Notes: generated from the letters alone by a model not told the origin. A DNA stretch of 64,000 nt from Patescibacteria group bacterium (GCA_041660605.1 JBAZWB010000003.1:18680-82679); one strand, 5' to 3'; positions 19,359 to 62,680 are shown, numbered from the stretch's first letter. Program-made: numbers and translations.

Positions 19359-19371
19359 AAATAATTATTTT

Positions 19372-35843: not shown

Positions 35844-36470
35844 ATGAAGCCTCTTTTAGAACTATTAATTTTAATTATTCTCCCGATAATTTTGTTATTG
35901 ACCAGGGTGATTCGCCACCGCCTGCGCTTTTATACTCTGGCTTTTGTTACCATTGCCATTACCGTTGTTTTTATTCATGACCAGGCGACATTAAAAGACA
36001 TCGGAATCCGTACGGACAATCTATTGGCAGCGCTGGGAATCTATCTGATATTTACCATCGCCGGTTATCTGTTTATCCGCTGGTATGCCGGTTTCACTCG
36101 TTCAGCAAAAAATCCAAACTGGAAATCAGACCCTCATTTTCGATACTTATTCATCCCCATCAGCCTTGCCCAGCAATACATTTTCATGTCTTTTGCCTTA
36201 AGCCGGCTTGAGGAAATTTTAAACTGGGATGTTGTTATAATTATTATAAACGCTGTTTTATTCGCTTTAATACACATTACTTACGGTAAATTCAAAACCA
36301 ATCTTCCGCTAGTCATCCTGGCCGGCCTTGGGTTCAGCCTTCTATATTTATACTTCCCAAATCTGATAGCCAGTTCGCTTTCTCATATGGCGCTCAATCT
36401 GACGGCTGTCTATTTTGGATTTCTGACGGTTTCCGGCAGCCGGCCTGTTAATGAAAACACCGAGAAATAA
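35844..36470 (+). CDS. CPBP/Abi family intramembrane metalloprotease-like protein.
   Basis: EEILNW, FALIH and HMALN motif positions within a polytopic protein. Confidence 0.45.
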   Translation: MKPLLELLILIILPIILLLTRVIRHRLRFYTLAFVTIAITVVFIHDQATLKDIGIRTDNLLAALGIYLIFTIAGYLFIRWYAGFTRSAKNPNWKSDPHFRYLFIPISLAQQYIFMSFALSRLEEILNWDVVIIIINAVLFALIHITYGKFKTNLPLVILAGLGFSLLYLYFPNLIASSLSHMALNLTAVYFGFLTVSGSRPVNENTEK

Positions 36471-36537: not shown

Positions 36538-39105
36538 ATGCCAAACAATGAAAAGCCAGTTTCAGAAAGCGAAATGAGACTGCGTAATCAGAATGCCGCC
36601 AGCCCGGAACAATGCCTGGGCAGTCTTCAGACGACCGCGCATGGACTAGATCGCGGTGAAGTCGGGAAACGTCTGCGCGAATATGGATACAATGAGATAG
36701 TCAAAAAGGGCAAGCAAAGCATAGTCCTGGAAATACTATCAAAATTTAAAAATCCGCTGGTCATCGGCCTGATCGTCATCGCGATTTTTTCATTTTTTTT
36801 CGGTGAAAAAATCAGCGCCGTCATCGTCGTAAGCATGGCCGTATTATCAGTCGTTTTATCATTTATTCAGGAGCATAAAGCGCAAAAAAACGCTGAAAAG
36901 CTCCAGGCCATGGTACGCGTGACGGCCCGGGTTCTGCGTTCGGGGAGAATTACGGAAGTTCAGCTGAAAGAGCTGGTGCCCGGGGATATCATCGAACTGT
37001 CAGCGGGCGTCATGCTGCCGGCGGACGTGAAAATTATTTCCGCCAAGGACCTTTTTGTCAACCAATCCACGCTGAATGGCGAATCGTTTCCTGTAGAAAA
37101 ATTCCCTACGCCGCAGAATCAAAAAACCGAAACAATTTTTGACCTGGACACTATCGCTTTTATGGGCACCAGCGTGGCTAATGGAACCGCGCAGGGCGTG
37201 GTGGTGGCTACCGGCCAGCACACGCAATTCGGTCAGCTGTCCAAGCACCTCATTTCAGACGAACCGCCGACTGCCTTTGACGTCGGCATTAAAAAATTCA
37301 CTCTCCTGATGCTCACGCTTATTGCCATACTCTGCGCATTTATCTTTGCGATTAATGCGATCACCGGCCGGCACAGTGTCCTGGATTCCCTGATCTTCGC
37401 CCTGGCGGTGGCTGTCGGCATCGCGCCGGAAATGCTCCCCATGATTGTTACCGTCAATCTGTCCAAAGGCGCCCTGCGCATGGCGAAAAAAGACGTGATA
37501 ATCAAACGGCTTGATGCCATCCAAAACTTAGGTGCTATGGATGTGCTCTGCACGGACAAAACCGGCACCCTGACGCTGGACAGCGTTTCACTGGTCCGCT
37601 ATTGCGATCCGTTCGGCCAGGTCGATGAAAATGTGCTTAAAAAAGCGTATATCAACAGCACCAACCAAACCGGCCTGCAGAACCTGCTGGACAAAGCCGT
37701 CTTAAGATTCAAAAAATTCGCTATCGATGGAATTAATAAAATAGACGAGATCCCTTTTGATTTTGAGCGGAAAATAATGTCAGTCGTAGTCGAAGAAAAA
37801 GGCCGGCATCAGCTGATTGCCAAGGGAGCTCCGGAAGAAATTTTTAAGCGCTGCCGGCATTACACCTCCTCCGAGGGGACACAGCCGATGACAGCCGAAC
37901 AGCAGCAGTTGTTCCGCGAGCGGGAAGCGGCCTTTAACCATGACGGATTCCGCGTGCTGGCCATCGCTTCACGCGTATTTGAAAAACATCAAGACGCATA
38001 TAATAAAGAAGATGAACAAGACCTGATTTTTGAGGGCTTCACCGCTTTTCTGGATCCGCCGAAACCCACGGCGCGCGAAGCCATTCTTTCGCTGGAAAAA
38101 CTCGGCGTGACGCTGAAAATTCTTTCCGGCGACAATGCCTTGGTAAATCAGAAAATCTGCAAGGAAGTCGGCATTGCCGTCGATAAAATTGTCACCGGAC
38201 CGGAAATTGACAAGATGTCCGATGAGCAGCTGCAGGCAGTGGTTGAGGAAGCCGATATTTTTGCCCGCGTCATGCCTCTGCAAAAGGAACGCATCATCAG
38301 GGCTTTGCAGGCGAAAAAGCATATTGTCGGATTCCTCGGCGACGGCATCAATGACTCGCCCGCCCTAAAAGCGGCGGATACCGGCATTTCCGTTGATAAT
38401 GCCGCTGATATCGCCAAGGAAACTGCGGACATTATTTTATTGAAAAAATCCCTGAATGTGCTGTCTGACTGCGTGCGTGAAGGCCGGAGGACGTTTGCCA
38501 ATACGCTGAAATATATTAAGATGGGCGCCAGCTCGAACTTCGGCAACATGCTTTCCATGACCGGCGCCAGCATTTTTCTGCCGTTCCTGCCCATGCTGGC
38601 CACCCAGATTCTGCTTAATAATTTCCTGTATGATCTGTCGCAGGTAACGATCCCCACTGATGACGTTGACGAAGAGTATGTGGAAAAACCTAGGCCCTGG
38701 GATATCAAATACATCAGGGAATTCATCCTGGCCCTCGGCCCGGTCAGCTCAATTTTTGATTTCACTACTTTCGGCATCATGCTCTGGGTTTTCCATGCCA
38801 ATGAGCATTTATTCCAGACCGGCTGGTTCGTTGAATCGCTGTTCACGCAGACCTTCGTTATTTATATTATTCGTACGCATAAAATTCCCTTTTTCCAGAG
38901 CCGACCAAGCAAAATTCTTTTATACGCAACTCTCGGTATCGTAGCCACCGGGTGCATTATTCCCTATACGCCAATTGGAGCCTGGTTCAATTTCGTACCT
39001 CTGCCGCCGCTTTTCTTCCTAATCCTCTTGGGCATTGCCGTCGCCTACCTCCTGCTGGCGCAACTGGTAAAAGTTATTTTTGTTAAAAAATTCGGATTTG
39101 AGTAA
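36538..39105 (+). CDS. mgtA: P-type ATPase, MgtA-like Mg2+ transporter.
   Basis: DKTGTLT and GDGINDSPALK motifs. 855 aa with ten TM helices. Confidence 0.75.
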   Translation: MPNNEKPVSESEMRLRNQNAASPEQCLGSLQTTAHGLDRGEVGKRLREYGYNEIVKKGKQSIVLEILSKFKNPLVIGLIVIAIFSFFFGEKISAVIVVSMAVLSVVLSFIQEHKAQKNAEKLQAMVRVTARVLRSGRITEVQLKELVPGDIIELSAGVMLPADVKIISAKDLFVNQSTLNGESFPVEKFPTPQNQKTETIFDLDTIAFMGTSVANGTAQGVVVATGQHTQFGQLSKHLISDEPPTAFDVGIKKFTLLMLTLIAILCAFIFAINAITGRHSVLDSLIFALAVAVGIAPEMLPMIVTVNLSKGALRMAKKDVIIKRLDAIQNLGAMDVLCTDKTGTLTLDSVSLVRYCDPFGQVDENVLKKAYINSTNQTGLQNLLDKAVLRFKKFAIDGINKIDEIPFDFERKIMSVVVEEKGRHQLIAKGAPEEIFKRCRHYTSSEGTQPMTAEQQQLFREREAAFNHDGFRVLAIASRVFEKHQDAYNKEDEQDLIFEGFTAFLDPPKPTAREAILSLEKLGVTLKILSGDNALVNQKICKEVGIAVDKIVTGPEIDKMSDEQLQAVVEEADIFARVMPLQKERIIRALQAKKHIVGFLGDGINDSPALKAADTGISVDNAADIAKETADIILLKKSLNVLSDCVREGRRTFANTLKYIKMGASSNFGNMLSMTGASIFLPFLPMLATQILLNNFLYDLSQVTIPTDDVDEEYVEKPRPWDIKYIREFILALGPVSSIFDFTTFGIMLWVFHANEHLFQTGWFVESLFTQTFVIYIIRTHKIPFFQSRPSKILLYATLGIVATGCIIPYTPIGAWFNFVPLPPLFFLILLGIAVAYLLLAQLVKVIFVKKFGFE

Positions 39106-39646: not shown

Positions 39647-41551
39647 ATGAAAAAGATTATTGCTGGAATTCTTTCGCTGGCTGGTTGTGCCGCCTACGCA
39701 TTCATTCCCATAAAGGCGGTACTTCCTTCGTTTGTCGTCCATACCGCAGAACAGCAACAATCCGTACAAACGCAGAAATATCCGAATACGCCATTCAAGG
39801 ATTTCGGCTCTGATGCTCCATGGGTGCATCGCGCTGGGCTGGCGGCTGATATCCCCGTGATCACGTTCATCAAGGACGCAGACCAGGATTCTGTTCTGCT
39901 GGATTATGTAAGGTTTATTCGCCAAGACACTGGCCAAAGCGTTGGCGTGTATAATCCGGTCCCTGATATTACCTTAGACCAGCCATACTGGTGGCTGCGT
40001 TTGAACGGGCTGACCCCAAACTCATTAGGCCTCGCCTATGGCGATACATTGAAGTTGCGGGTTGAAATTCACTTTCGTGATCAGCTTATTTGGCATAATT
40101 ACACGCAGAATCTTCAAATTAAAATCGCCCAGCCGTGGCCGGAGCTATCAGGGTGGTATCGCGGAGACACGCATCATCATAGCTGGTATACCCAGGATAC
40201 TTTTGATTTTGGGAGTGAATTGGGGTTTGACGCTGATGCCGCCAAAGACATCGGCTTATCATGGGTGGCGCTGACTGAACACTCATATGATGTTACGCAA
40301 TCAGAGTGGCAGGATATGAAGACCCGTACCGCTAGCTTGTCTTCACCGCAATTCCAATTATTGCCGGGACTGGAATTTTCAGCTGATTCAAATAACGTTA
40401 ATGACCCGCTTGACGACCGTATCCACATCGTGGGGCTTGGCCTGCAGAATTGGATAGCTGGTCCGGACATTGTTCCGACGTTTGACGTCAATGCAACACA
40501 GCCAAAAACATTATCTGCCGTATTATCAGATATTGAGGCGCAGAACGGCATTGCCTACACCGCGCATCCCGAAACCAACTCAATTCCGATAGATATATAC
40601 GGTTTTCTGGCAAAATGGACAGATCAAAATTATTCGGAAGCGCAACAGTCCAAAGCATTCATGGGATTGCAGATTTTCAATGAACGCCCCACCTCGGAAA
40701 ACAATACCAGCATAACTACCGATAACATCAATCCTTTCCCCTGGATCCCAAATCCGAATTGGGATACGGAATGGCTGCGTGGCATTGCTAAATACAATTC
40801 TTTGGTTAAGGCGAATTTGACCCGCAAATTATTCATGCTTGGCGGCGCTGATGCCCACGGGGATGCCAATTACAAAACATTTAATGCTCAGGGTGCATTT
40901 AATTTTGCGGCGAATGAAACCGCGTATGGCAGAATTCATACAGCGCTCTATCTGCCTAACGGCCTTACCAATGAATCAATTATTGATGCCTTAAGAAACG
41001 GGCAGGCGATTTCAACCGACGGTCCGCTCGGCGCCTTCGATATTCGCAATAATCAGGATGAAGTTGTCGCCTCAATTGGCGATACGCTGCCATATACTGA
41101 CGGGCTGACCCTGCATATCAATGCGGCCTCAAGCGCTGAATTCGGTAATTTTGATAAAGCGGTCATCCATGTGCTGGCAAAAAATGATGAACGCCACATT
41201 GATATTCCTTTATCAGGGTTGCAGGCGATTGCCTCAAAAGAACTGTCGACATTTGGCATTACTGCGCCATTTGCGGTCTGGGTTGAGACGCGCACGCAAT
41301 CAGGGTATCGCAGTTTCGCAAATCCTATTTGGATTTACCCAGCCCAGGTCTGCGGTGATGCGGATGGTGATGGATCGGTGAATATCGCCGATGCGGTATA
41401 TACCGTTAATTATATTTTTAATCATGGCCCACAGCCGTATTACGGCGATAACAACAATGATGGCATGATTGACATTAGTGATGTGGTTTATCTCGTCAGT
41501 TACATTTTTTCACACGGTCCAGCTCCGCTTTGCGGCCCACTAAAAAACTAA
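39647..41551 (+). CDS. Secreted PHP-domain phosphoesterase with two C-terminal dockerin-type repeats.
   Basis: Signal peptide. PHP motifs GDTHHHS, LTEHSY and AHPE. GDADGDGSVNIADAVYTVNYIF and GDNNNDGMIDISDVVYLVSYIF match the dockerin I repeat. Confidence 0.55.
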   Translation: MKKIIAGILSLAGCAAYAFIPIKAVLPSFVVHTAEQQQSVQTQKYPNTPFKDFGSDAPWVHRAGLAADIPVITFIKDADQDSVLLDYVRFIRQDTGQSVGVYNPVPDITLDQPYWWLRLNGLTPNSLGLAYGDTLKLRVEIHFRDQLIWHNYTQNLQIKIAQPWPELSGWYRGDTHHHSWYTQDTFDFGSELGFDADAAKDIGLSWVALTEHSYDVTQSEWQDMKTRTASLSSPQFQLLPGLEFSADSNNVNDPLDDRIHIVGLGLQNWIAGPDIVPTFDVNATQPKTLSAVLSDIEAQNGIAYTAHPETNSIPIDIYGFLAKWTDQNYSEAQQSKAFMGLQIFNERPTSENNTSITTDNINPFPWIPNPNWDTEWLRGIAKYNSLVKANLTRKLFMLGGADAHGDANYKTFNAQGAFNFAANETAYGRIHTALYLPNGLTNESIIDALRNGQAISTDGPLGAFDIRNNQDEVVASIGDTLPYTDGLTLHINAASSAEFGNFDKAVIHVLAKNDERHIDIPLSGLQAIASKELSTFGITAPFAVWVETRTQSGYRSFANPIWIYPAQVCGDADGDGSVNIADAVYTVNYIFNHGPQPYYGDNNNDGMIDISDVVYLVSYIFSHGPAPLCGPLKN

Positions 41552-44287: not shown

Positions 44288-45418
44288 ATGAATCGCTATA
44301 TTAGCCATCCCCGCCAACTGGCAAAAAAATTTCCCAGCTCAAATTACGCACTGGCGCCAATGCGCCTGGCAAAAATAATTATCTGCCTTTTCACGGTAGC
44401 AGGAATTTTTTTAATAGGCTGGCATTTTCTCTATGCTGCCAGCGAGCCTGGCCCGCAGATTTATGTTTTTAAACAACCAACCGCCACTACAAACACCAGC
44501 ACAGCCGCTAGCCAAAAAATTACGCTCATCGCTGTCGGCGATATCATGCTCTCCAGGAATGTGGAGCAGAAAATGATCAATAAAAAAGACTGGCTCTACC
44601 CTTTTCGGGAAACTTATCAGGCAACGACTAAAGGCGATATTGTCTTCGGCAACCTGGAAACCCCGATCATCGAGGGTCCCATAGTCCAAACCGGGACAAT
44701 GGTTTTCCGCACTGACCCGCAAGCCATTGCCGGATTGGAATACGGCGGGTTTAATATTCTTTCGCTGGCAAATAATCACATGAAAAACCAGGGCGAAAAA
44801 GGCATTGCCAGCACCATTGAAGAGCTGGACAAGGCCGGCATTAAACATATCGGTGCTGGCTTGAATGCTACGGAAGCCGGTGAACCGGCAATTATCGAGG
44901 CAAAAGCGACAACTTTCGGATTTTTAGCCTACAACGACGGCTCTTTTTCGCCGGCCAGTTATGAAGCGACTGAGAGCAGAAGCGGCTCGCCTTTTCTGAA
45001 TACTGAAAAATTGATCAGCGACATTCAAAATTTAAAAAGCCAGGCGGATGTAATTATTGTCTCCATGCACGCCGGCACGGAATATAATCTCCAACCAAAC
45101 CAAAAACAGATAGACTTCGCCCATACGGCCATTGATAACGGCGCCCAGCTGGTCATTGGCCATCACCCGCACGTGCTCGAACCATACGAAAAATACAACG
45201 GCGGATATATTTTTTACAGTCTGGGAAATTTCATATTTGATCAGATGTGGTCGGAAAACACCAGGCATGGCGCCATCGCTAAAATTATCTTCAGTCAGGA
45301 TAGGATAGAAAGCTTCGAACTTACCCCGGTTAAAATTTACGACTACTCCCAGCCAAAAATTGCCGAAGGCACCCAGGCTGAAGAAATTCTGTCGCAAATT
45401 CAGGATTTTACAAAATGA
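44288..45418 (+). CDS. CapA/PGA_cap family metallophosphatase (poly-gamma-glutamate-type capsule biosynthesis protein family).
   Basis: GDIM, GNLE, NNH and GHHPH metal-binding blocks. Confidence 0.7.
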   Translation: MNRYISHPRQLAKKFPSSNYALAPMRLAKIIICLFTVAGIFLIGWHFLYAASEPGPQIYVFKQPTATTNTSTAASQKITLIAVGDIMLSRNVEQKMINKKDWLYPFRETYQATTKGDIVFGNLETPIIEGPIVQTGTMVFRTDPQAIAGLEYGGFNILSLANNHMKNQGEKGIASTIEELDKAGIKHIGAGLNATEAGEPAIIEAKATTFGFLAYNDGSFSPASYEATESRSGSPFLNTEKLISDIQNLKSQADVIIVSMHAGTEYNLQPNQKQIDFAHTAIDNGAQLVIGHHPHVLEPYEKYNGGYIFYSLGNFIFDQMWSENTRHGAIAKIIFSQDRIESFELTPVKIYDYSQPKIAEGTQAEEILSQIQDFTK

Positions 45419-45458
45419 GCATTTTCTGATATAATAAAGTAGCAATTATAAAATAAAT

Positions 45459-46331
45459 ATGAAAAAAATCACCAAAGTCGTAATTCCTGCGGCTGGATAC
45501 GGCACCCGCTTCTTACCGGCGACAAAAGCTCAGCCAAAAGAAATGCTCCCCATCGTGGATAAGCCGATTATTCAATATGTGGTGGAAGAAGCGGTAAATT
45601 CGGGAATTAAGGATATTATCATAGTGACCAACTCGCTGAAAAGGTCGCTGGAAGACCATTTTGACTATTCTTTTGAACTTGAACATCAGCTGAAAGAAGG
45701 CGGCAAATTAAAAGAGTTTGAAGAAGTGCGCCGCATCGCCAAAATGGCTAATTTTATTTATATCCGCCAGAAAGGGCCGTACGGCAATGCCACGCCGGTC
45801 ATTTCAGCCGCGCATATCCTGGACAATGAACCTTTTGCCGTGCTTTGGGGTGATGAATTCATCTACAGCAACCCTCCGCGCCTTAAGCAGCTCCTGGATG
45901 TTTATGACAAATATCACTGCTCGGTTATCAGCGCAGTGCGTATTCCTGACAAAAATGACGTTTCCAAATACGGCATCGCTGAAATAAAGCCGGTCAAGGA
46001 CAATGTTTATCAGATAATGTCCCTGGTGGAAAAACCCAAGCCGGAAGAGGCGCCCTCAAACCTGGCCACTCACGGCGGATACGTTTTCACTCCCGGAATT
46101 TTTAAGCACCTCAAAGACATCAAGCCAGGAAAAGCCGGAGAAATTTGGCTGGTAGACGCCATAAAAAGCCTGATGCAGGAAGAAAAAGTCTATGCCTGCG
46201 AGATAAAAGACGGCCACTATTACGATACCGGAAACAAGCTGGAATATCTGAAAGCTAACATTGATTTCGCCCTGCAGCGGGACGATCTCCGCCAGCCACT
46301 GCTTGATTATCTTAAAACTATTAAAAAATAA
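45459..46331 (+). CDS. galU: UTP-glucose-1-phosphate uridylyltransferase.
   Basis: VIPAAGYGTRFLPATKAQPKEMLPIVDKPIIQY. Confidence 0.9.
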   Translation: MKKITKVVIPAAGYGTRFLPATKAQPKEMLPIVDKPIIQYVVEEAVNSGIKDIIIVTNSLKRSLEDHFDYSFELEHQLKEGGKLKEFEEVRRIAKMANFIYIRQKGPYGNATPVISAAHILDNEPFAVLWGDEFIYSNPPRLKQLLDVYDKYHCSVISAVRIPDKNDVSKYGIAEIKPVKDNVYQIMSLVEKPKPEEAPSNLATHGGYVFTPGIFKHLKDIKPGKAGEIWLVDAIKSLMQEEKVYACEIKDGHYYDTGNKLEYLKANIDFALQRDDLRQPLLDYLKTIKK

Positions 46332-46333
46332 TA

Positions 46334-47731
46334 ATGCTTAATCCCGCAAGACAACAGAACGGACTCTCAAAAATTTTTATCTTGCTTATCCTCGGGGGCA
46401 TCGCCGCGATAATTTTAACCGTAGTTCTCGTAATATTCCAATCTCAAAAATCTCCGCCGCCAGCAAAAATCACTCTGAATATCTGGGGGGTCTGGGACGA
46501 TACTTCCGATCTTAAACCGATCATTGACGCTTACCGCAGAGCCCATCCTTACGTTAATATAAAATATTCGAAAATCAGATACGAAGAATATGAGGACATG
46601 CTCCTGAACGGCTGGGCCAACCAGCCGAGCACCGGCCCAGATATTTACGCTCTCCCCAACACCTGGCTGAAAAAGTACAACACCCGCGGCTTCATCACGC
46701 CTATCCCAAAAACAACCTCAGTCACGAATTACACTACCAGCCAGATCATCTTCAAACAGGAAGTCCAATACCAGGAGGTTACTGAAAATTCCCTGACTAC
46801 CAGCGATATCAAGCGCAATTACGTTGACTTGGTTTATGGAGACATTATCCAGGGAGGTAAAATTCTCGGCCTGCCGCTGGGCATTAACCCACTGGAGCTA
46901 TTTTATAACCGGAATTTGCTGGATCAGGCCCATCTAGTGCAGCCGCCACAAACCTGGGCGGAATTTGCCAGCGCTGTTTCAAATATGACCACCATTGACG
47001 AGCAGAACAAGATAGTCCGGGCCGCCGCCGCGCTGGGCACCAGCAATAACATCAGCTACCCCCAGGACATCCTGACGCTGCTGATGCTGCAAAACGGTAC
47101 GGTGATGGCCACCGGCTCAAAAATAGCTTTTGACAAGCCCTCCGCCACCGACGCTGCTTATTTCCCCGGCGAAGAAGCGCTGCGTTTTTACACGGATTTT
47201 ACCAGCCCGGAAAAAGCTGTTTACACCTGGGGCACGGAAATGCCCAACGCCCTTGATTATTTTGCGGAGGGAAATTTAGCTTTCTTTTTCGGCTACCCTT
47301 TCCAGGAGGCAGAGATAAAAAGCAAAAGTCGCGGCATAGATTACGGAGTGGCGCCGGTGCCGCAAATCAATCCGGAAAGTGAGATTAACGTGGCCAACTA
47401 CTGGGTTTATACGGTTTCGCACAAAGCCAGCAATAAAAGCCTGGCCTGGAATTTCTTGCAGTTTGCCACCAAAGCCAAATACGTCAAATCATACGTGAAC
47501 TCCACAAAACAAAGCAGCGCTCTGCGCTCAGTTCTCCAGCAGCAGATACTTGATCCCGACCGCGGCCCGGTGCTGCAGCAGGTGCTCACCGCCCAAAACT
47601 GGTATCACGGCAGTGATCAGCAGGACGCTGATCAGGTTTTACAAGACATGATCACCAGCGTTGTTACCAACGGCACACCTATAAAGGATGCTCTAATGCA
47701 GGCGGCGAAAAAAATAGATAAAAGTTATTAA
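46334..47731 (+). CDS. Extracellular solute-binding protein (ABC SBP family 1-like), membrane anchored. No cognate permease is nearby.
   Basis: N-terminal TM anchor and an SBP_bac_1-like LNIWGVWDD region. Confidence 0.5.
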   Translation: MLNPARQQNGLSKIFILLILGGIAAIILTVVLVIFQSQKSPPPAKITLNIWGVWDDTSDLKPIIDAYRRAHPYVNIKYSKIRYEEYEDMLLNGWANQPSTGPDIYALPNTWLKKYNTRGFITPIPKTTSVTNYTTSQIIFKQEVQYQEVTENSLTTSDIKRNYVDLVYGDIIQGGKILGLPLGINPLELFYNRNLLDQAHLVQPPQTWAEFASAVSNMTTIDEQNKIVRAAAALGTSNNISYPQDILTLLMLQNGTVMATGSKIAFDKPSATDAAYFPGEEALRFYTDFTSPEKAVYTWGTEMPNALDYFAEGNLAFFFGYPFQEAEIKSKSRGIDYGVAPVPQINPESEINVANYWVYTVSHKASNKSLAWNFLQFATKAKYVKSYVNSTKQSSALRSVLQQQILDPDRGPVLQQVLTAQNWYHGSDQQDADQVLQDMITSVVTNGTPIKDALMQAAKKIDKSY

Positions 47732-47753: not shown

Positions 47754-49409
47754 ATGGGAAAAGGGAACCAAAAAACGTTTCTCGCAATACTAATAGTAAT
47801 ATTTTTATTATCAATAATTTCGATCCTGCTGCCGCGCCCTTCTCTGGCCGCTGAATATCCGTCGGGCTGGGAAATAATACCAGAAGCTTGCCTGGGGAAC
47901 CAGGGAAAAAATGATGCTCCTTGCGATTTGAATTCATTTATTCAGCTTTTTGTTAATCTAGCCGGTATTGCCATAAAAGTCCTGCCCTATATCGCCATGC
48001 TGATGATGATCTGGGCCGGGTTTAATCTGATTATGGCCGGCGGCAACCCCACTAAAATCCAGGAAGGAAAAAAAATGATTACCAGCGTCTTGCTGGGGAT
48101 CATTATTGTCCTCTTTCTGGCCTGGGCATGGGCTAATTTCGTGGTTTTCGCCCTGACCGGCAGCGTCAATGTTTTTCCCGGTTCAATTTTTTCCAAGGAA
48201 TGGTGGGGCGGCGGGAACACCAACCAAATAGAGCCGAATGCCGGCTGCTGCCCGGTGGCCGAACACGGCTGTATAGAAATAACCGAAGACGAATGCACCA
48301 ACCAATACACCAGCCGATACCCAGGCACTAAATGGAGGGCCGGCAGCTGCTATCCTGATGATGCGGCTTTCTGTGATAAGCTTAAAGTCGGCTGTTGTGT
48401 GCCAGAAAATCTGGAAGATGATATTTGCTATACACCTGGAAATAACGGCTGCCTGGACGCTCCGCAAACCAAATGGAACACCAACCAATGCGGCAGCGTC
48501 CAGCAATGCGATCCTTTAAAAATTGTCGGTACGCCACAGCCTGGCAATGGCTGCTGTGTAACGCCCAATAACTGCAGCACTCAAACATTTGGAGCCTGCC
48601 TGGGCACTTATTATTCTCAAAACTGCAGCCAGATCGCTGAATGCGGCCAGGGCTGCTGCGTCGGCAATACTGCCTGCAAAGCAGGAAAAATTGATTGCGA
48701 TGGTGCCTGGCAGAACGTTGCCTGTTCCACCCTGCCCGGCGATTGCCAGGCGGGCTGTTGCATAGACAACGATCCTAATAATATGGATTGTTTCCAATCC
48801 ACTTTTTCTGCCTGCGCCGGCGCGGCTGCAGCTTTTTTCCCAGGAGCAAACTGCGCCTCTGACCATGCCGGAACCTGCGCCCTTGGCTGCTGCCTGGACA
48901 CTTGTACCACCGGCAGGATGAACGATTCGTGCGCCCCTAACATGAGTTACAATAATTATGTCAGCGGTGCCAATGGCTGCGGCGATACTGCTGGCTTCAC
49001 TCCGCCCCAAGCAGCAGGCGGATGTGAATTAGGCTGTGGCCTCGCCAATGGCGCGAGTACCTGTCAGCGTAACGTCAGAAAAAAAGATTTTCCTGCTGAC
49101 CATTTTTGGCAGGATCTTGCCTGTAACGCCGGCGCGGCCAAAACCGCCTGCGAAGAGGGCTGCTGTATTGATACCTCTAATAATTACGTCTGCCTAGACG
49201 GATTCTCCCACCAAGGTTGTATAGATAGAGGCGGATTATTTTCCTTAAACACTTGCGGTGCCAGCCCTCAATGTTCCACAGGCGGTTGCTGCGTGTCAGG
49301 TGGAATATGCACCATGCAGACCTCAACGCAAACACGGGCCTATTGCGAAAATACGGGACCAGGCGGAACCTGGTATCCCCAGGCAGAGTGCTCTTCACAA
49401 GGTTGTTAA
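47754..49409 (+). CDS. TrbC/VirB2-like pilin N-terminal module fused to a ~400-aa Cys-rich extracellular repeat domain (GCC-motif repeats).
   Basis: SD AAGGGGGAG upstream. The N-terminus is paralogous to the two downstream pilin-like ORFs (AGGNPTKI). At least 9 repeats of x-G-C-C-[VIL]-x, for example QGCCVGNTAC, AGCCIDNDPN, LGCCLDTCTT. Confidence 0.5.
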   Translation: MGKGNQKTFLAILIVIFLLSIISILLPRPSLAAEYPSGWEIIPEACLGNQGKNDAPCDLNSFIQLFVNLAGIAIKVLPYIAMLMMIWAGFNLIMAGGNPTKIQEGKKMITSVLLGIIIVLFLAWAWANFVVFALTGSVNVFPGSIFSKEWWGGGNTNQIEPNAGCCPVAEHGCIEITEDECTNQYTSRYPGTKWRAGSCYPDDAAFCDKLKVGCCVPENLEDDICYTPGNNGCLDAPQTKWNTNQCGSVQQCDPLKIVGTPQPGNGCCVTPNNCSTQTFGACLGTYYSQNCSQIAECGQGCCVGNTACKAGKIDCDGAWQNVACSTLPGDCQAGCCIDNDPNNMDCFQSTFSACAGAAAAFFPGANCASDHAGTCALGCCLDTCTTGRMNDSCAPNMSYNNYVSGANGCGDTAGFTPPQAAGGCELGCGLANGASTCQRNVRKKDFPADHFWQDLACNAGAAKTACEEGCCIDTSNNYVCLDGFSHQGCIDRGGLFSLNTCGASPQCSTGGCCVSGGICTMQTSTQTRAYCENTGPGGTWYPQAECSSQGC

Positions 49410-49425
49410 TAATTTTATATTATAT

Positions 49426-49806
49426 ATGAAAAAAATAGCCTTTTTCTTAGGCCTGACAATACTATGCTCCGCCCTGCTAGCCGGTACATTTCTTATTCCG
49501 CATACGGCCTTGGCAGAATCCCCCTCTCTGCCTAACCCCCTGGGCAACAATGCCAACGGCCAACCAATGAACTTGGTTGACGTCATGTTGCGGGTTTTAC
49601 AAATCGCTTTGGCGGCTGTGGACATTTTCGCCTTATTTATGTTCATCCTGGGCGGCTTCGAATTCCTCGTTTCTGCGGGTAACCCCACTATGATAAAAAA
49701 AGCTAAGGACACTCTCATCTGGGCGACGCTGGGCATACTGGTGATTACCATGAGTTACACTATTTTGAAATTCCTGTTTGAAGTTATCCAAGATAAACTA
49801 TCTTAA
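49426..49806 (+). CDS. TrbC/VirB2-like pilin family protein.
   Basis: Signal peptide ending ALA. Two hydrophobic helices separated by GGFEFLVSAGNPT. Confidence 0.55.
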   Translation: MKKIAFFLGLTILCSALLAGTFLIPHTALAESPSLPNPLGNNANGQPMNLVDVMLRVLQIALAAVDIFALFMFILGGFEFLVSAGNPTMIKKAKDTLIWATLGILVITMSYTILKFLFEVIQDKLS

Positions 49807-49812
49807 TAATAC

Positions 49813-49841
49813 TTGACAAAAAAAGATTTTTAGCCTATAAT
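49813..49841 (+). promoter_or_regulatory. Consensus sigma70 promoter (TTGACA, 17-nt spacer, TATAAT).
   Basis: Perfect hexamers with a 17-nt spacer, about 75 nt upstream of the 49916 gene. Confidence 0.6.
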
Positions 49842-49915
49842 AGCGGCATAACAATATTATTCATTTTAACAGTTAATTTATCAATAAAACTGTTTACTGA
49901 AAGGGGGTGAAATTA

Positions 49916-50269
49916 ATGAAAAAAATCGTATTCGGCCTATTAACTCTTAGCTTATTGGTAGTCCCGATGATCGCCAGCGCTCAAGCCACAGTCAATAAAG
50001 ATTTGGGCACGACCTTTAACCTGGGTACGGCTGACTTAGAGTCCACTGTAATCAAAATTGTGCAGTGGGTGCTCGGCTTTTTGGGCTTAGTCGCTGTTGT
50101 CATGATCTTAATCGGCGGCTTCCAATGGATGACTGCTGGCGGTAACGAAGAAAAAGTTGCCTCAGCTAAGAAAGTTATTTCCGCTGCCGTTATTGGTTTA
50201 ATCGTGATCCTCTTAGCCTGGGCCATTGTCATCTTCGTTGTTTCTCAGACTCATAAGGTGACAACCTAA
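49916..50269 (+). CDS. TrbC/VirB2-like pilin family protein.
   Basis: SD AAGGGGG. Signal peptide ending ASAQA. ILIGGFQWMTAGGNEEKVASAKK is the typical VirB2-like core. Confidence 0.6.
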   Translation: MKKIVFGLLTLSLLVVPMIASAQATVNKDLGTTFNLGTADLESTVIKIVQWVLGFLGLVAVVMILIGGFQWMTAGGNEEKVASAKKVISAAVIGLIVILLAWAIVIFVVSQTHKVTT

Positions 50270-50302
50270 TTCAAGCTTATAGAAGTTAATAATATATAGA
50301 TC

Positions 50303-50340
50303 CCCCCACACCATTTCAATGGTGTGGGGGTTTGTTTTTG
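50303..50340 (+). terminator. Strong rho-independent terminator.
   Basis: CCCCCACACC-atttcaa-TGGTGTGGGGG followed by TTTGTTTTTGG. Confidence 0.75.
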
Positions 50341-50366: not shown

Positions 50367-52367
50367 ATGCCATTCATTAATGAGTTAAAAACGTTTTTCT
50401 ACAAAAACAATAAAAAAATTCTCTGGACAACGATTGGCCTTTATGTTTTGGTAATTATTATTTTTCTAGTGCAAAAATACCTGTCATACGGCTATAATGC
50501 CATTGATTTAGCCATTTATAATCAGGTGTTTTATAATTCCGCCCACGGGCATTTATTCCAGTTCAGCATCCATCCTCACTCATATCTGGGCGATCATTTT
50601 GAACTTTTTATTATCTTACTGCTTCCGTTTTATTATTTTTTCCAGTCACCCCTGACGCTGCTTTTTTTACAAACCCTGTTTCTGGGCCTGGCCGCCTGGC
50701 CGCTCTATCTACTGGCCAGAACAATATTAAATCGCCACTGGTCACTGATCCTAGCGGCGGCTTTTCTGATTAACCCGTTTATCTGGAACATGAATTTTTT
50801 TGAGTTCCACATACTGCCATTTGCCATTTTCTTTCTGCTATTTGCTTTTTATCATTACAAAAAAAATAATTTTTTACAGTTTTGCTTTATCGCTGGCATC
50901 TCTTTGCTAATCCGCGAGGACGTTTCCTTGGTAATCCTAATGTTTGGAATTCTTGCGCTGATAGAAAAACGAAGCCTTAAGTGGATACTGACGCCGCTGC
51001 TGGCCGGCGGAATTTGGTTTATTACCGCTTTTCAGCTGACAGGATATTTCAACAATTACGGAAGCTATAAATTTCTCGCTTTATACAATTGGCTGGGCGA
51101 GACGCCAGCGGAAATTATAAAAAATTTATTCCTTAATCCTTGGCTGGTGCTAAAAAATATTTTTACCTTTAATAATCTTTTTTCGGTACTTGGTTTGCTG
51201 CTGCCTTTGGCGGCGCTACCGGTTTTCAAATTAAAATACCTGCTGCCGGCCGCCCTGATCTGGATACAGCTTTTCCTCCTGCAGGCCAGCCCGACTATTA
51301 TGCTAGAAACTCATTACGCCGCCCTGATCATCCCTTTTCTATTTATCAGCGCCATCTACGGCTTGCATCGGGTGCTTCAGTCAAAAAACCGCAGTCTCCT
51401 GAAAAAACTGCCGTATTTTCCGTCAAAAACAATCTATTTAACAATTATCATTATTGCTTTCTTGTATTCCTGGGTAACTTTCAGTCCGCTGATTACCGCG
51501 ACCAGAGGTTTCCTCTTTGGCCAGGCGGATAACGCCCGGCAAATAATCGGCGATGAACAAATAAAATTAATTGATAACAACGAATCGGTGGTATCCAGTT
51601 ACGCTTATTTAGCGCCTTTATCCGGCCGTACCCAGCTGTATTCACTGCACTACGCCTTTGAAGGTAAAAAACAGTATTCAGACCAGGCATACAGGATAGA
51701 CCAGCCAATCGACAAAATGATCGTTGATTACCATGATTTCGTCATTTATTACCTCCAATCGCAGGGCCATGGGGTGGAAAGCTTACAGTATTCAACCGGC
51801 GCCGGCCGGATTGCCGGATTGATAGAAAAAAATAACCTGGGTTTGAAAAAAATAATTGATAATACCGCCGTTTATGAAAAAAATTATGCGCCTACGGAAA
51901 AATTAACCGAGGAACTGGACGTAGCTCCGGAAAAAATGATAAAAATAAACCAGTCGGAAGGTGAAAATCTGATCCTACTGGGGTGGGAATATTCAAATGC
52001 CGAGAATCTTTCCGGATACCAAATCCTGCCTTTGAGTCTTTATTGGCAGGCGGCAAATAAAATCGCAGATGATTATAAGCTGAAAATTTCCGTTACCGAT
52101 GAAAAAAATAAAGTCGTGCTGGAAAAATTCTATCCACTGGGCTACGGTTTGCTGCCGACCAGCCAGTGGCCAACCGATAAAATAATTCAGACAAACTATT
52201 GGTTCGCTTTGCCGGAAAAAATGAATCTTGCCGATCACCGCGTCTCGCTGCAAACAGTCAGGCTTGAGGGGTACCTGGATCTTGATAATTTGCGCTCAGC
52301 GGAAACAAGAATTACCAACCAGGAAAACATTGGTGAAGCCCTGGCTCTGCCTCATAACAATTTATAA
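50367..52367 (+). CDS. DUF2079-like polytopic membrane protein (predicted GT-C-type glycosyltransferase) with a large C-terminal extracytoplasmic domain.
   Basis: YNAIDLAIYNQVF..HGHLF..HPHSYLGDHFE resembles the DUF2079 N-terminal signature. Confidence 0.5.
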   Translation: MPFINELKTFFYKNNKKILWTTIGLYVLVIIIFLVQKYLSYGYNAIDLAIYNQVFYNSAHGHLFQFSIHPHSYLGDHFELFIILLLPFYYFFQSPLTLLFLQTLFLGLAAWPLYLLARTILNRHWSLILAAAFLINPFIWNMNFFEFHILPFAIFFLLFAFYHYKKNNFLQFCFIAGISLLIREDVSLVILMFGILALIEKRSLKWILTPLLAGGIWFITAFQLTGYFNNYGSYKFLALYNWLGETPAEIIKNLFLNPWLVLKNIFTFNNLFSVLGLLLPLAALPVFKLKYLLPAALIWIQLFLLQASPTIMLETHYAALIIPFLFISAIYGLHRVLQSKNRSLLKKLPYFPSKTIYLTIIIIAFLYSWVTFSPLITATRGFLFGQADNARQIIGDEQIKLIDNNESVVSSYAYLAPLSGRTQLYSLHYAFEGKKQYSDQAYRIDQPIDKMIVDYHDFVIYYLQSQGHGVESLQYSTGAGRIAGLIEKNNLGLKKIIDNTAVYEKNYAPTEKLTEELDVAPEKMIKINQSEGENLILLGWEYSNAENLSGYQILPLSLYWQAANKIADDYKLKISVTDEKNKVVLEKFYPLGYGLLPTSQWPTDKIIQTNYWFALPEKMNLADHRVSLQTVRLEGYLDLDNLRSAETRITNQENIGEALALPHNNL

Positions 52368-53971
52368 ATTTGTACGTCGGGATTAGTATATACCTCCTGC
52401 AAATATTTTTTTGTGGCGGGATTATAGTCGCCTTTTTCCTTTTCTTTACGGCCGTAATACACGTAGTCAATATTGTTATTTATCAAAAGATCATTTTTGG
52501 CCTGAACCTCCAGGTCGCTCTGCCAAAACCAATCGTTGATCTCATATTTTTCCAGCAGGTCAATCGTCTGCGGGCCGTGCCCGATCCAGACAATCCGACC
52601 CGTGTAAGCGGGAATGAAATTACCCATGTAATAGCTGGAAAAAATAATTTGCTGGCGGCCGACATTCTGCTTCAGCCAATTCATGGCCTCAATTTCCGTC
52701 TTAGTCAGGTAATATGGCAGCGTTTTTTTGTTAGCATACAGCCAGATATCCTGGCCTAAAATTTGAATATTGGTCAGCGGTAAAAATACCAAAGCTCCAA
52801 TAATTAACCCATAAATATAAATATTATTGTTTTTACTTTTGTCATTTATTCTTTTTATCAAATATAAAAAGCCCAGGCCAGCCAGAATAGCGATGGGAAC
52901 ATGCAGCCCCTCTGACATGCGACGCTGGAAGGACACTGGGACATAAATTAACAAGGATGAGCAGAGTAACCAAGAAATGATAAAAATGCCTTTATTATTA
53001 ACTTTTTTAAAAGTTATCCACAGGCCAACCACAACTAGAGGTAATAACAATCCATAACCAATTAAATACATCCAAACGCTCGGCGAAGGCAGAATGTTCT
53101 GCTTCTCCCACTGGCGGGTAACCCAATCAGCTTGTGCTGTTAAAAACAGATACAAGACAATGGGCACGGGTAGGGCACATAAAATCAAATAATGCTTTAC
53201 ATGAGACCAGATAATTTTTTTATTTTTCCAAAAAATGAACAATAAATATACCCCCAGGACGGCGTAAACAGTTGGGCCGTTGAACGGATGAAACCATAAA
53301 AGAAAAAAGGTGGCAATGCCGGCTCCCAGACTATAGCGGATCTGATCTTTTTCGAAAGCCAGCAGCATTAGTAAAAACGTCAGCACTAATAAAGTCAGCG
53401 AGGCAATCAAGTGCGGGGAATGATACAAGGTCAAAAAAGTTACGCTCTCAACGACCCAGGTATCTGTGGGATGCTCATAAAGATTATTTACATCAAATAA
53501 GATAGGATTAAAAAATACGCCCAGGCCGGAAGCGAAAATAATAAAGACTAGAAACCATTTCCTTTTTTGTGGATCTTTAAATAAATACGCTAGAAGCAAA
53601 AAAATGACAAAGATAAAAATCGCCGCCCAGATTGATCTGGCCACGTGCAAAGTCAGAAGATTTGACATTTTGAATATCTTGCCCAGCCAGCCGACCGTCA
53701 GCCATAAAGGATTTGTTAAAATCTCATGCTGAGGCTCGCTGGTATATAAATTTAAAAAAGTGATCCGGCCCTGCTTCGCCTGCTCAATCATCGACATGAA
53801 GACATTGGTATCGCCGGGCGTCAGATAATGCAGGCCGGAGTAAACGGTGCCTGGCGGGGCGGTAAAGTAACCGTATAGATACGGCACGGCGGTTATCAAA
53901 ATAACTCCGGCAATCACCAGAGCAAGAAAAATCCATTCCTTTTTTGATATAGATTTTATTAATTCATTCAT
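52352..53971 (-). CDS. Polytopic membrane protein, GT-C-like glycosyltransferase candidate.
   Basis: More than 10 TM helices and a C-terminal soluble domain. No specific family assigned. Confidence 0.35.
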   Translation of the reverse strand: MNELIKSISKKEWIFLALVIAGVILITAVPYLYGYFTAPPGTVYSGLHYLTPGDTNVFMSMIEQAKQGRITFLNLYTSEPQHEILTNPLWLTVGWLGKIFKMSNLLTLHVARSIWAAIFIFVIFLLLAYLFKDPQKRKWFLVFIIFASGLGVFFNPILFDVNNLYEHPTDTWVVESVTFLTLYHSPHLIASLTLLVLTFLLMLLAFEKDQIRYSLGAGIATFFLLWFHPFNGPTVYAVLGVYLLFIFWKNKKIIWSHVKHYLILCALPVPIVLYLFLTAQADWVTRQWEKQNILPSPSVWMYLIGYGLLLPLVVVGLWITFKKVNNKGIFIISWLLCSSLLIYVPVSFQRRMSEGLHVPIAILAGLGFLYLIKRINDKSKNNNIYIYGLIIGALVFLPLTNIQILGQDIWLYANKKTLPYYLTKTEIEAMNWLKQNVGRQQIIFSSYYMGNFIPAYTGRIVWIGHGPQTIDLLEKYEINDWFWQSDLEVQAKNDLLINNNIDYVYYGRKEKEKGDYNPATKKYLQEVYTNPDVQIYKLL

Positions 53972-60101: not shown

Positions 60102-61184
60102 ATGACTACGCCCATAAATATCCAAAAAATAATTTCTACCTCAAAAGAGGTAATCAAAGGATGCGCGCTGGAAAACGGCGCCATTGTTGCCGCCAATACC
60201 GACAAGGCCTATTCCCCGAGAGAAGCAGCTGACTACCGTTATGTCTGGATACGCGACGCCGCTTTCGTCTGCGTGGCGGCTGAATATCTGAAACTGCCGA
60301 TCCAGGAAAACTTTTTCAATTGGGTCAATGATCGGCCGGAAGACTTCCACACCGACAAATTATTATACTCAAATTACTCAACCAACGGCCGTATTGCTAC
60401 CATGGGCAAGCAATTCCAGGCTGACCAGACCGGAATTTTACTTTGGGTCATCCATCATTATTTTAAAAAAGATTTAAAAAAAGCTTTAAAATTCAAAGAA
60501 TTAATCCAGCGTTTAGCGGACGGCCTGGCTTCCCAGTGGGACAAGGACCATTTTGTTACGCCGACTACGGATGTCTGGGAAATGCTAGAAAGGAAAACCT
60601 CCACCCGGCTGAAAAATAATTTTACCTACTCGCTGGCTGCCTGCGTCAGAGGCCTATTCTGCGCTAACGAAATTATTCCCAATCATTTATGGAAAGAAAC
60701 TGCCATGCAGATGACGCAGCAGATTGATGAAGCCTATCAAAAAGAAAAAAAATATTTTTTTCGCAACCAGGGAGTGATCTCCGATCCGAATATTGATGCT
60801 TCAATGCTCGGCCTGGTATACCCCTGTAAAATTTATGAGGCCGACGATGCCAGAATGATAAATACCGTCCAGAAGATCGAAGAAAATATCGTAGTCAAAG
60901 GAGGAGTGCATCGTTTCCAGTTTGATTACTTTGACAGTGAGGGATCAGCCCAGGAAGGCGGCGGCGCCTGGCCGGTATTAAATTGCTGGATGTCTATTTA
61001 CTACGCCATCAAGGGCAATAAAACCAAAGCGCACCAATACTTCGACTGGGTGGTAGAGAGATCAAAAAAATTTAACTACTACCTGCCGGAGCAGTATTTC
61101 GACGATATCCGCGTCGGCATTTATCCTCTGGCCTGGAGCCATGCCATGTTTGTCATCACCGCCCGCCATTTGGGGTATATTTAA
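60102..61184 (+). CDS. Glycoside hydrolase family 15 (glucoamylase/glucodextranase-like).
   Basis: GAIVAANTDKAYSPREAADYRYVWIRDAAFV. Confidence 0.7.
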   Translation: MTTPINIQKIISTSKEVIKGCALENGAIVAANTDKAYSPREAADYRYVWIRDAAFVCVAAEYLKLPIQENFFNWVNDRPEDFHTDKLLYSNYSTNGRIATMGKQFQADQTGILLWVIHHYFKKDLKKALKFKELIQRLADGLASQWDKDHFVTPTTDVWEMLERKTSTRLKNNFTYSLAACVRGLFCANEIIPNHLWKETAMQMTQQIDEAYQKEKKYFFRNQGVISDPNIDASMLGLVYPCKIYEADDARMINTVQKIEENIVVKGGVHRFQFDYFDSEGSAQEGGGAWPVLNCWMSIYYAIKGNKTKAHQYFDWVVERSKKFNYYLPEQYFDDIRVGIYPLAWSHAMFVITARHLGYI

Positions 61185-61189
61185 AATTT

Positions 61190-62680
61190 ATGGTTAAAAT
61201 ATTTCGCATTGCCAGTATTACTTCCGAAGTCAGCCCTTATTCAAAAACTGGCGGCCTGGCCGATGTTACCAAGTCCCTGTCAAAAGCCCTGGCCAGCCTC
61301 GGACACAAGGTTTTTTTGATAACTCCGTATTATAAATTTATCAAAGAGCAAAATTTGAATCTGAAAGAAGCCGCCGTTTTTACCATTACGCTAGGCAAGG
61401 AAAAATACCCTATCTGCATAAAGTACCTTGATTTCAGCGAAAACCTGAAAATTTATTTTATCAATAATGAAAAGCTTTTTGGCTGCCGCGCGCGGGTTTA
61501 CGGATACGATGACGATAATCTGCGCTTCTTTATATTCAATATGGCGGCTCTCCGGCTGCTCGATAGCCAGAATCTGAAGCCTGACATCGTGCATGCCCAC
61601 GACTGGCAAGCCGGCACCGTACCCTATCTGATGAAAAAATACCTCAAACGCTACCCCAGCCTGAAGAAAGCCGCCACTCTTTTTACCATACATAATCTCA
61701 CTTTCCAGTCCTCCGGCGACTGGTGGCGCATACAGGAACATCACAAAGATGACGGTCTGACAGATCCTATTCGCCATCCGAATATCATTAAAACTTTGAA
61801 TTTTACCAAACGAGCCATCATGTACGCGGACGTCATCAATACCGTCAGCGAGCGTTATGCCGAAGAAATTACCACGCCGGAATTTGGCCAGGGGCTGGAT
61901 CGCTGTCTGCGGCACCGAAAAAATAACCTCTATGGCATAATTAACGGCATTGATTATACGGTGCACAATCCTGCCTATGATAATAATATTGAATATAAAT
62001 ATGACTGGAACAGCCTGCGCCGGAAAAAGAAGGACAAGCTGGCCCTGCAAAAAATCGTGGCTCTGGATAGAAACCCCGACATCCCATTAATAGGCGTAGT
62101 CAACCGTTTAACCGAGCAAAAGGGCTTTACTTTGATTATGGAAACGATTGAAACTTTGATGCGCCTACCTTTGCAGATTGTAATCGTCGGGGAGGGTTTT
62201 AAGGAATATGTTGCGTTTTTCAAAAAAGCAGCGCGGAAATACCCGAAAAAATTAGGCATCTACACGCCTTTTACCGAAGCGATGGAATCAAAAGTCTACG
62301 CCGGGTCAGATATGTTCCTGATGCCTTCGCGCTTCGAGCCCTGCGGCATCTCCCAGCTGAAAAGCCTGCGTTACGGTTCCATCCCCATTGTACATGAAAC
62401 CGGCGGGCTGTCGGACACGATTACGAATTTTAATGCAAAAACGCGCAAGGGCAATGGCTTCGTTTTCAGGCGGTTTACTACCATTGATTTCATCATCGCC
62501 CTGACGCGCGCCCTGGAAACCTACAAATACCCCCAAATCTGGGAATATTTAACCTGGCATGCCATGCAGCAGTCATATTCCTGGGAATTGCCGGCAAAAA
62601 AATACATCCAGCTCTTCAATGTGGCCATAAAAAATTTAAAATCAAGGAAAACTAATAAAGAGCTGCCTTATATCAAATAA
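61190..62680 (+). CDS. glgA: Glycogen (starch) synthase.
   Basis: SEVSPYSKTGGLADV and the C-terminal GT-B blocks. Confidence 0.9.
   Translation: MVKIFRIASITSEVSPYSKTGGLADVTKSLSKALASLGHKVFLITPYYKFIKEQNLNLKEAAVFTITLGKEKYPICIKYLDFSENLKIYFINNEKLFGCRARVYGYDDDNLRFFIFNMAALRLLDSQNLKPDIVHAHDWQAGTVPYLMKKYLKRYPSLKKAATLFTIHNLTFQSSGDWWRIQEHHKDDGLTDPIRHPNIIKTLNFTKRAIMYADVINTVSERYAEEITTPEFGQGLDRCLRHRKNNLYGIINGIDYTVHNPAYDNNIEYKYDWNSLRRKKKDKLALQKIVALDRNPDIPLIGVVNRLTEQKGFTLIMETIETLMRLPLQIVIVGEGFKEYVAFFKKAARKYPKKLGIYTPFTEAMESKVYAGSDMFLMPSRFEPCGISQLKSLRYGSIPIVHETGGLSDTITNFNAKTRKGNGFVFRRFTTIDFIIALTRALETYKYPQIWEYLTWHAMQQSYSWELPAKKYIQLFNVAIKNLKSRKTNKELPYIK

Follow-up and report, generated by a model that had tools for sequence, protein, structure and literature searches.

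Three neighbouring genes in the genome of a Patescibacteria group bacterium (GCA_041660605.1, JBAZWB010000003.1:18680-82679) raise the question of why a pilin-type protein should carry a cysteine-rich domain of about 400 residues, and of what it does at a locus where no secretion genes are found. The genes, here called A, B and C, are co-directional and span positions 47754-50269 of the 64-kb stretch that was analysed (the window; positions are counted from its first nucleotide, and features lie on the plus strand unless stated otherwise). We find that the locus is a chromosomal three-gene array of the family PF18895 (T4SS_pilin, where T4SS stands for type IV secretion system) in a Kerfeldbacteria-related Patescibacterium, and that A joins a pilin module to a tandem array of six-cysteine units. 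A large part of bacterial diversity belongs to the Patescibacteria, which are mostly attached to other cells and whose host-recognition molecules are largely unknown. We regard A as a candidate surface-recognition subunit, in which a pilin module is combined with a fast-evolving modular ectodomain at a fixed genomic slot.

Gene A (47754-49409) encodes a protein of 551 aa, gene B (49426-49806) one of 126 aa and gene C (49916-50269, from an ATG at 49916) one of 117 aa; the start of B is the ATG at 49426 and not that of a longer open reading frame (ORF) beginning with GTG, and the sizes given for B and C in a preliminary description of the locus stand. That description took the three for tandem paralogous pilin-type genes, and profile searches bear this out. 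The Pfam gathering threshold of PF18895 is 26.6 bits; C (50.1 bits) and B (28.5 bits) score above it and A (21.8 bits, over aa 69-128) below it. However, orthologs of A carry precomputed PF18895 matches and the pilin module of A matches the C genes of related loci by tblastn (35-49% identity, E 1e-7 to 1e-9), and A, B and C are therefore paralogs. Their mutual identity is about 22-38%. Hydropathy shows three hydrophobic stretches in each protein, in agreement with the signal peptide and two hydrophobic transmembrane helices described earlier, and alignment, hydropathy and an AlphaFold2 (AF2) model of A all match the PF18895 layout, in which a short G-G-N...K-rich loop connects two hydrophobic helices that come after a signal peptide. 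The loop between the transmembrane helices is MAGGNPTKIQEGKK in A, SAGNPTMIKKAKD in B and TAGGNEEKVASAKK in C, that of C also being given as AGGNEEKVASAKK. The signal peptide of A occupies aa 1-33 (47754-47852; hydrophobic stretch aa 4-33; ...PRPSLAA/E) and is probably cleaved after its small-residue motif. The pilin module of A (47928-48158) comprises in the AF2 model a helix at 59-95, the loop AGGNPTKIQEGKK and a helix at 99-135; a conserved cysteine pair (C46 and C57) lies ahead of it and an invariant WWGG motif (aa 150-153) follows it.

The three types of pilin also differ in short motifs that follow the signal peptide, which are LPNP[IL]G or LPNP[IL][GK] in B-type proteins (window 49516-49533), [IL][IL]P-x-x-C in A-type proteins (47877-47891) and LGTADL in C-type proteins; these may be processing or assembly signals. 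In addition, the C-type proteins have a Thr-rich short tail that contains T-x-N-V-T (an N-x-T sequon) in many orthologs (L013-L021 among the related loci introduced below) and reads THKVTT in the window (50245-50269). This tail could be a glycosylation site, given the adjacent genes for enzymes of the GT-C glycosyltransferase type.

A search of the window with a hidden Markov model (HMM) of the pilin module found A, B and C only. Related genomes contain an extra, solitary C-type gene (L023:10001-10354, L025:10001-10351) that is 66-68% identical to C, sits between dnaB and a P-type cation ATPase gene, and has flanks without T4SS genes; the same HMM found no fourth pilin gene in the window, including the position before the P-type ATPase gene. 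We note that the P-type ATPase gene of the window (36538-39105) is preceded instead by a gene for a Rce1-like CAAX protease (35844-36470).

The trio had been called TrbC/VirB2-like, a description that finds no support in that form; no profile match to PF04956, VirB2 or TraA was obtained. Specifically, none of A, B and C matches PF04956 (TrbC/VirB2) at E <= 0.1. Known proteins of the VirB2/TrbC/TraA type share with the trio a long signal peptide, a mature length of about 70-95 aa, two hydrophobic helices, a short basic loop and termini on the outside; to our knowledge, none of their known members has a large C-terminal domain. Among the matches listed for the 703 relatives of C that were found, all are to PF18895, and 2 of the 120 relatives listed co-match PF04956. 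The NCBIfam model NF045849 (the Mbov_0395 family) aligns across all of its 80 positions with C (35.9 bits) and B (19.8 bits), and the NCBIfam scan of A gave no match. The Mbov_0395 proteins of Mycoplasma integrative and conjugative elements are likewise small hairpin proteins, belonging to monoderm conjugation systems of the MPF-FATA type (MPF, mating-pair formation), but B and C fall below the cut-off of 40 bits, the organism is a different one and the genes of such elements are not present at this locus. For these sequences the term VirB2-like is thus founded on the name of the family PF18895, a common topology, an NF045849 match just short of its cut-off and the two PF04956 co-matches.

The distinguishing feature of gene A is its ectodomain (48240-49406). 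A contains 54 cysteines, 52 of them within aa 165-551, so that the domain is 13% Cys. The preliminary description counted at least nine GCC motifs in it; there are exactly eight, seven followed by V, I or L and one by P, and a ninth, degenerate unit in which the motif is LGCGL. The resulting nine tandem units are 34-53 aa long and begin at aa 163, 212, 265, 299, 333, 377, 426 (the degenerate one), 468 and 510; eight have six cysteines and one has four. Their common pattern is x-G-C-C-[VIL]-x3-9-C-x4-8-C-...-G-x-[FYW]-...-C-x4-8-C. That the motifs are periodic, as had been proposed, is borne out in two ways: 34 members of the family yielded 193 units, and 189 of these have exactly six cysteines; and an HMM of the repeat gives eight spaced matches in A and 8-11 in long orthologs but none in other six-frame ORFs, whether in the window or in 26 related loci. 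DNA-level tandem repeats were looked for in gene A and none was found, which indicates that the units are old and diverged and not an assembly artefact. In an alignment of the A family almost every Cys column is invariant, and so is WWGG at the junction; mean pairwise identity is 0.94 in the Cys columns, 0.28 in the other columns of the ectodomain and 0.61 in the pilin module. Such conserved cysteines within otherwise divergent sequence are the signature of a fast-evolving surface domain scaffolded by disulfides, and we suppose that the cysteines of A are paired in this way.

Modelling points to the same kind of architecture. AF2 with the full-length alignment (predicted local distance difference test score, pLDDT, 72) gives the helical hairpin followed by small modules of beta-hairpin, helix and strand, and units 3-5 modelled alone reach a pLDDT of 90.9 and a predicted template modelling score (pTM) of 0.74. 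The modules are separate, and the beta-solenoid fold that had been anticipated for the domain is therefore rejected. The impression that the repeat was an unfamiliar one was correct: Pfam gave no match for the ectodomain or for repeat pairs at E <= 10, Foldseek comparison of the full-length and three-unit models with the PDB gave nothing at E < 2, and phmmer of the ectodomain and two alignment profiles (A3 and A1) gave only chance matches among PDB sequences. The repeat profile had no match in a database of 5.8 billion proteins, in a search that reached only 11 word-sharing candidates. We considered whether the ectodomain might be N-glycosylated and dropped the idea, as it shows no enrichment of N-x-S/T sequons (148 were observed and 123 expected). 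A second cysteine-rich protein is encoded in the window, at 19327-19812 (161 aa, 21 Cys or about 13%); it has CxxC-type spacing, many basic residues and no signal peptide, and kinship with the GCC repeat was ruled out.

One resemblance emerged when a 41-position profile of the repeat was compared with the whole PDB, where only chains of iRhom1 and iRhom2 were matched at E < 0.1 (E 5e-5 to 0.04). The profile aligns with two motifs in the luminal iRhom homology domain (IRHD; PDB 8SNL and others), and the GCC unit and IRHD have in common the framework CC-x6-C-x7/8-C-...-G-x-F-...-C-x4/5-C, together with matching non-Cys positions. Scored on their own, the iRhom motifs reach 22-24.5 bits, and genuine units of the window span 1.8-34.7 bits; shuffled sequences in which the cysteines were held fixed average 3-8 bits, and none of 1,000 attains the observed score. 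The profile of full-length A gave no iRhom match in the PDB. Both IRHD and the ectodomain of A are juxtamembrane, extracytoplasmic and Cys-rich and follow a transmembrane helix. IRHD is held together by eight disulfides; in the ectodomain of A, disulfide bonding is presumed. They differ in that IRHD forms one globular unit, whose two motifs are separated by further elements, whereas the ectodomain is a tandem array, and in that IRHD is an animal domain and the GCC repeat a bacterial one. The similarity of the two sequences appears to be specific, through either homology or convergence, each line of evidence for it being weak. The fold of IRHD has been described as unprecedented, and the likeness offers a lead on its building blocks.

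The fusion is not peculiar to a single assembly. The exact A protein is recorded by NCBI (MFA6099121.1, "MAG: pilin"), JGI, ENA and Logan and is found on two contigs; 22 homologs with the architecture of A are 33-47% identical to it; and the architecture, the junction, WWGG and the Cys columns recur in about 35 orthologs, which come from independent assemblies. The attachment of a periodic Cys-rich domain of about 400 aa to the first pilin, as described before, is thus a conserved property of the family. An exhaustive phmmer search with the ectodomain alone against 1.84 billion representatives returned only 18 cluster representatives, and the matches begin at aa 139-161 of the target, directly after the pilin module, with one exception in which the best segment lies in a later repeat.

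We collected 42 related loci, four by look-up of the exact protein, 18 from 185,579 species genomes and 20 from metagenomes. All are from Patescibacteria/Kerfeldbacteria, a few bins having wrong placeholder names. Relative to the window proteins, ortholog identity is 70-91% for C, which is the best-conserved gene of the cassette, 67-80% for GalU, 56-76% for B, 45-69% for the pilin module of A and 30-42% for its ectodomain. The gene in the A slot always retains the pilin module, and it is the ectodomain that differs among orthologs: long forms have 8-11 GCC units, short forms (256-344 aa) have 2-4, and divergent forms have 42-43 cysteines. In more distant Kerfeldbacteria (L019:2520-3635, L020:9809-10801, L021:11-1249 and L042-L045) the GCC repeats are replaced by a PG_binding_1 domain (E 1e-8 to 1e-9) and a C-terminal beta domain, the ortholog in L020 having a single GCC-like unit as well. 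In distant loci, two or three genes of the C type are present.

The array is embedded in a deeply conserved cassette. It is preceded by galU (45459-46331), whose product is a bona fide equivalog of UTP-glucose-1-phosphate uridylyltransferase (TIGR01099, 333.9 bits, above the cut-off), and by a gene (46334-47731) for a membrane-anchored solute-binding protein (SBP) of carbohydrate type (SBP_bac_1/8; Pfam E 1e-19) with weak GanS/MalE-like matches in NCBIfam. The conserved cassette opens with galU, which adjoins the SBP gene on its 5' side in every related locus that reaches that far; the SBP has a transmembrane anchor, adjacent genes for an ABC (ATP-binding cassette) permease or ATPase are absent, and gene A is always next downstream. 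Immediately after the pilin genes there is always a gene for a DUF2079 polytopic membrane protein (50367-52367; Pfam E 9e-53). Convergent with it, on the minus strand at 52352-53971, is a gene for a polytopic membrane protein of 539 aa, which has no family match in Pfam or NCBIfam scans and whose orthologs, 29-64% identical, occupy the same position. Of the 42 loci fetched, 36 have enough flank for comparison, and the order (PGA_cap)-GalU-SBP-A-B-C-DUF2079-convergent 539-aa membrane protein holds in 36 of 36, even where identity falls to 45% for GalU and 31% for SBP. In relatives the gene for the 539-aa protein is followed by genes for glycosyltransferases of the GT-C type, and the families encoded downstream include PMT_2, GT87, MptA_B, GT2 and LPG_synthase_TM. 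The cassette, the Cys-repeat ectodomain and the variability of that ectodomain (from 2 to 11 repeats, with a peptidoglycan-binding domain taking their place in sister lineages) all appear to be undescribed.

A promoter-like site upstream of galU (45407-45435; TTTACA-17-TATAAT, 11 of 12 matches, with a TG extension) likely starts a galU-SBP-A-B transcription unit, and the short gaps between these genes (2 nt between galU and SBP, 22 nt between SBP and A, 16 nt between A and B) suggest a single transcript. Gene A has the Shine-Dalgarno sequence AAGGGGGAG 8 nt 5' of its start. Gene C has signals of its own, which are as strong as had been reported: a sigma-70-type promoter that matches the consensus perfectly (49813-49841; TTGACA-17-TATAAT, 12 of 12), a GGGGGTG Shine-Dalgarno sequence and an intrinsic terminator (50303-50340) with a 12-bp G+C-rich stem (50303-50330), a 4-nt loop and a T run (dG -25.7 kcal/mol, z -3.1).

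How, then, might the three proteins work together? Our preferred reading, which we hold tentatively, is that C is a structural subunit, B a minor one and A a pilin-anchored display protein, and that a T4SS encoded elsewhere in the genome assembles a VirB2-type filament. The three would be exported by Sec, and after cleavage of the signal peptide each would form a helical hairpin in the membrane with its basic loop in the cytoplasm and both ends facing outward. We take C to be the abundant structural subunit because it is served by a consensus promoter and a strong terminator of its own and is conserved to the degree of the housekeeping gene galU; B would be its minor partner. The hairpin of A would serve as an anchor or as a module for incorporation, and the nine small modules, stapled by disulfides, would be displayed outside the cell as a rigid string. 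The ectodomain, as the fast-evolving and swappable part, might bind an external or cell-wall ligand, and A could accordingly be either a host-cell adhesin or a wall-spanning stalk. C, with B and A, would be assembled into a filament or platform of the VirB2 type by the T4SS presumed to be encoded elsewhere. The analysis establishes the family, the topology, the layout of the repeats, the conservation and the synteny, whereas the pairing of cysteines, the assembly and the binding of a ligand are deduced.

Such a division of labour has parallels. Adhesins of the FimH type, and VirB5 at the tips of T4SS pili, combine a module that fits into the fibre with a separate, displayed binding domain; VirB5 is not a paralog of VirB2. 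The comparison with A is one of logic only, as there is no relationship in sequence or fold, and a location of A at a tip is hypothetical. The Trw system of Bartonella, as cited in PMC12102498, has tandem diverged variants of trwL/VirB2 and trwJ/VirB5 that are thought to widen the specificity of surface binding; it is, however, a diderm T4SS locus with the full machinery adjacent and without fused ectodomains. There are also the VirB2-like pilin arrays (PF04956/PF18895) of 2-11 divergent genes that are common in Patescibacteria (PMC12102498, PMC10633639, PMC12857230), and since these are documented the tandem arrangement is in itself already known. In the same sources, a pilin gene is near virB4 in 1,135 of 1,948 VirB4-positive, pilin-bearing assemblies and elsewhere in the rest, and the array of S. 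epibionticum is essential. The arrays of S. epibionticum ML1 and N. lyticus TM7x (Wang et al. 2023, Quinonero-Coronel et al. 2025) resemble the one described here in family (PF18895), in phylum and in consisting of tandem divergent paralogs, with a mean identity of 25% in reported arrays and of about 22-38% among A, B and C. They differ in that described arrays consist of small pilins, often within a virB4 cluster, whereas here one member bears a 400-aa ectodomain, the setting is a GalU/SBP/DUF2079 cassette, and the 64 kb contain no T4SS gene. The published accounts of Patescibacteria arrays (PMC12102498, PMC10633639, PMC12857230) mention no fusion of a pilin to a large domain, and a literature search found no paper that joins Patescibacteria, pilin and cysteine-rich.

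Several observations weigh against a filament built by a T4SS. No T4SS component (VirB4, VirB6, VirB3 or VirB8) was found by Pfam among the 57 ORFs of the window, which covers 64 kb of a 185-kb contig, as the preliminary description had also reported, and no T4SS gene was found in the seven loci whose domains were annotated (among L001-L004 and L023-L026), the flanks of the other loci having been compared with the window genes only. The invariant flanks, with GalU-SBP on one side and DUF2079 and a membrane protein on the other, suggest that the setting has to do with the cell envelope or with glycans and not with secretion. A profile of the pilin module matched no pilin in the PDB at E <= 10, though VirB2 and TraA chains are present there; hhalign gave probabilities of 2.7% for VirB2 and 0.1% for TraA; and Foldseek of the full-length A model against the PDB found no pilin, in a comparison that detects helical hairpins poorly and in which the module was not run alone. 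The literature on Patescibacteria arrays reports no visualised pilus of PF18895 proteins. A domain of 400 aa on every subunit could not be packed in a VirB2-type filament, from which we infer that A would be only a minor or terminal component. Finally, the peptidoglycan-binding domain of sister lineages lies about 50 residues from the membrane anchor, and wall attachment at the base fits such a position better than a distal tip does. In favour of a T4SS encoded elsewhere, two of the three Kerfeldbacteria assemblies whose VirB4 entry could be read, among the 17 listed in Table S1 of PMC12102498, are VirB4-positive.

The main rival reading, which we consider somewhat less likely, is that there is no filament at all. 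A, B and C would then reside in the envelope and, with the SBP, GalU, DUF2079 and GT-C-type enzymes, build, anchor or organise a surface glycopolymer or wall layer, the ectodomain of A being a wall-embedded spacer or scaffold and PF18895 reflecting an ancestry shared with T4SS pilins, not a shared function. The gene order that persists in 36 of 36 loci despite low identity of GalU and SBP, the closely spaced galU-SBP-A-B genes and the glycosyltransferase-type genes (PMT_2 to LPG_synthase_TM) downstream in relatives all favour this arrangement, as do the near-membrane PG_binding_1 domain of some A-slot orthologs, the failure to find virB4 nearby in domain-annotated loci and the solitary C-like gene between dnaB and the P-type ATPase gene, which is likewise without T4SS genes. 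Yet gene order within one lineage can persist by inheritance without functional coupling, and the lack of sequon enrichment gives no sign that A is a substrate of glycosylation. Elsewhere in Patescibacteria, moreover, most assemblies have their PF18895 genes next to virB4, and these genes and the T4SS are both essential; the extreme conservation of C, with its own promoter and terminator, suits a mass-produced polymer subunit.

These considerations extend beyond the present locus. VirB2-like arrays are essential in the sole species tested, but their role is unexplained. The cassette described here indicates that pilin arrays can be tied to genes for sugar-nucleotide synthesis, sugar binding and GT-C glycosyltransferases with no secretion genes found alongside, which leads one to ask whether every PF18895 protein is part of a T4SS. 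A bolder and improbable view is that the cassette specifies a hitherto unrecognised, T4SS-independent surface organelle of Patescibacteria of the ABY1/Kerfeldbacteria type, in which interchangeable A ectodomains set the grip on host or wall and the GCC unit is an ancient homolog of the modules of IRHD. The VirB2-like hairpin proteins would in that case give rise to a filament or platform constructed jointly with a sugar-binding protein and GT-C enzymes.

It is very unlikely that the ectodomain is instead a metal-binding or redox module, in which the six thiols of each unit would bind a metal (Zn, Cu or Fe) or relay electrons at the surface of an anaerobe, an organism that may lack the machinery of oxidative folding. 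The 13% Cys content and the invariance of the Cys positions could be read in this way, a scan of 57 ORFs of the window revealed no gene of the DsbA or VKOR type, and the window encodes a Cu-oxidase_4 protein, a ferric-reductase-like protein, the P-type ATPase and a protein with a weak cupredoxin-like match (below the Pfam cut-off). Against this, the number of cysteines per unit is even, His is almost absent (1%), CxxC and CxxH spacings are absent, AF2 confidently predicts compact beta-hairpin/helix modules that are typical of disulfide-stapled domains, and the nearest match, IRHD, is stapled by eight disulfides. That gene A is an artefact, arising by frameshift, read-through or an assembly chimera between a small pilin and unrelated low-complexity sequence, could be argued from the sub-threshold PF18895 score of A only and is effectively refuted by some 35 independent orthologs that keep the junction, WWGG and the Cys columns, as well as by the occurrence of the exact protein on two contigs and in four sources, the lack of DNA tandem repeats, the uninterrupted frame and the good Shine-Dalgarno sequence.

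Other parts of the window contain features that we record here for completeness. Three ORFs (11550-12764, 13772-14842 and 16594-17886; 356-430 aa) gave nothing in Pfam at E <= 0.001. An ORF of 634 aa at 39647-41551 has a weak C-terminal match of dockerin-type/EF-hand-like character (E 0.0013) and otherwise no family, and may encode another secreted surface protein. At 60102-63901, a YebC-type regulator gene is followed by genes for GH15, a Glyco_transf_5 starch synthase and GH57, a set of glycogen/starch type. Lastly, the 2-kb bin with the highest G+C content of the window (0.55, compared with about 0.45) holds a urocanase gene (6356-8404), and this could mark a horizontal acquisition.

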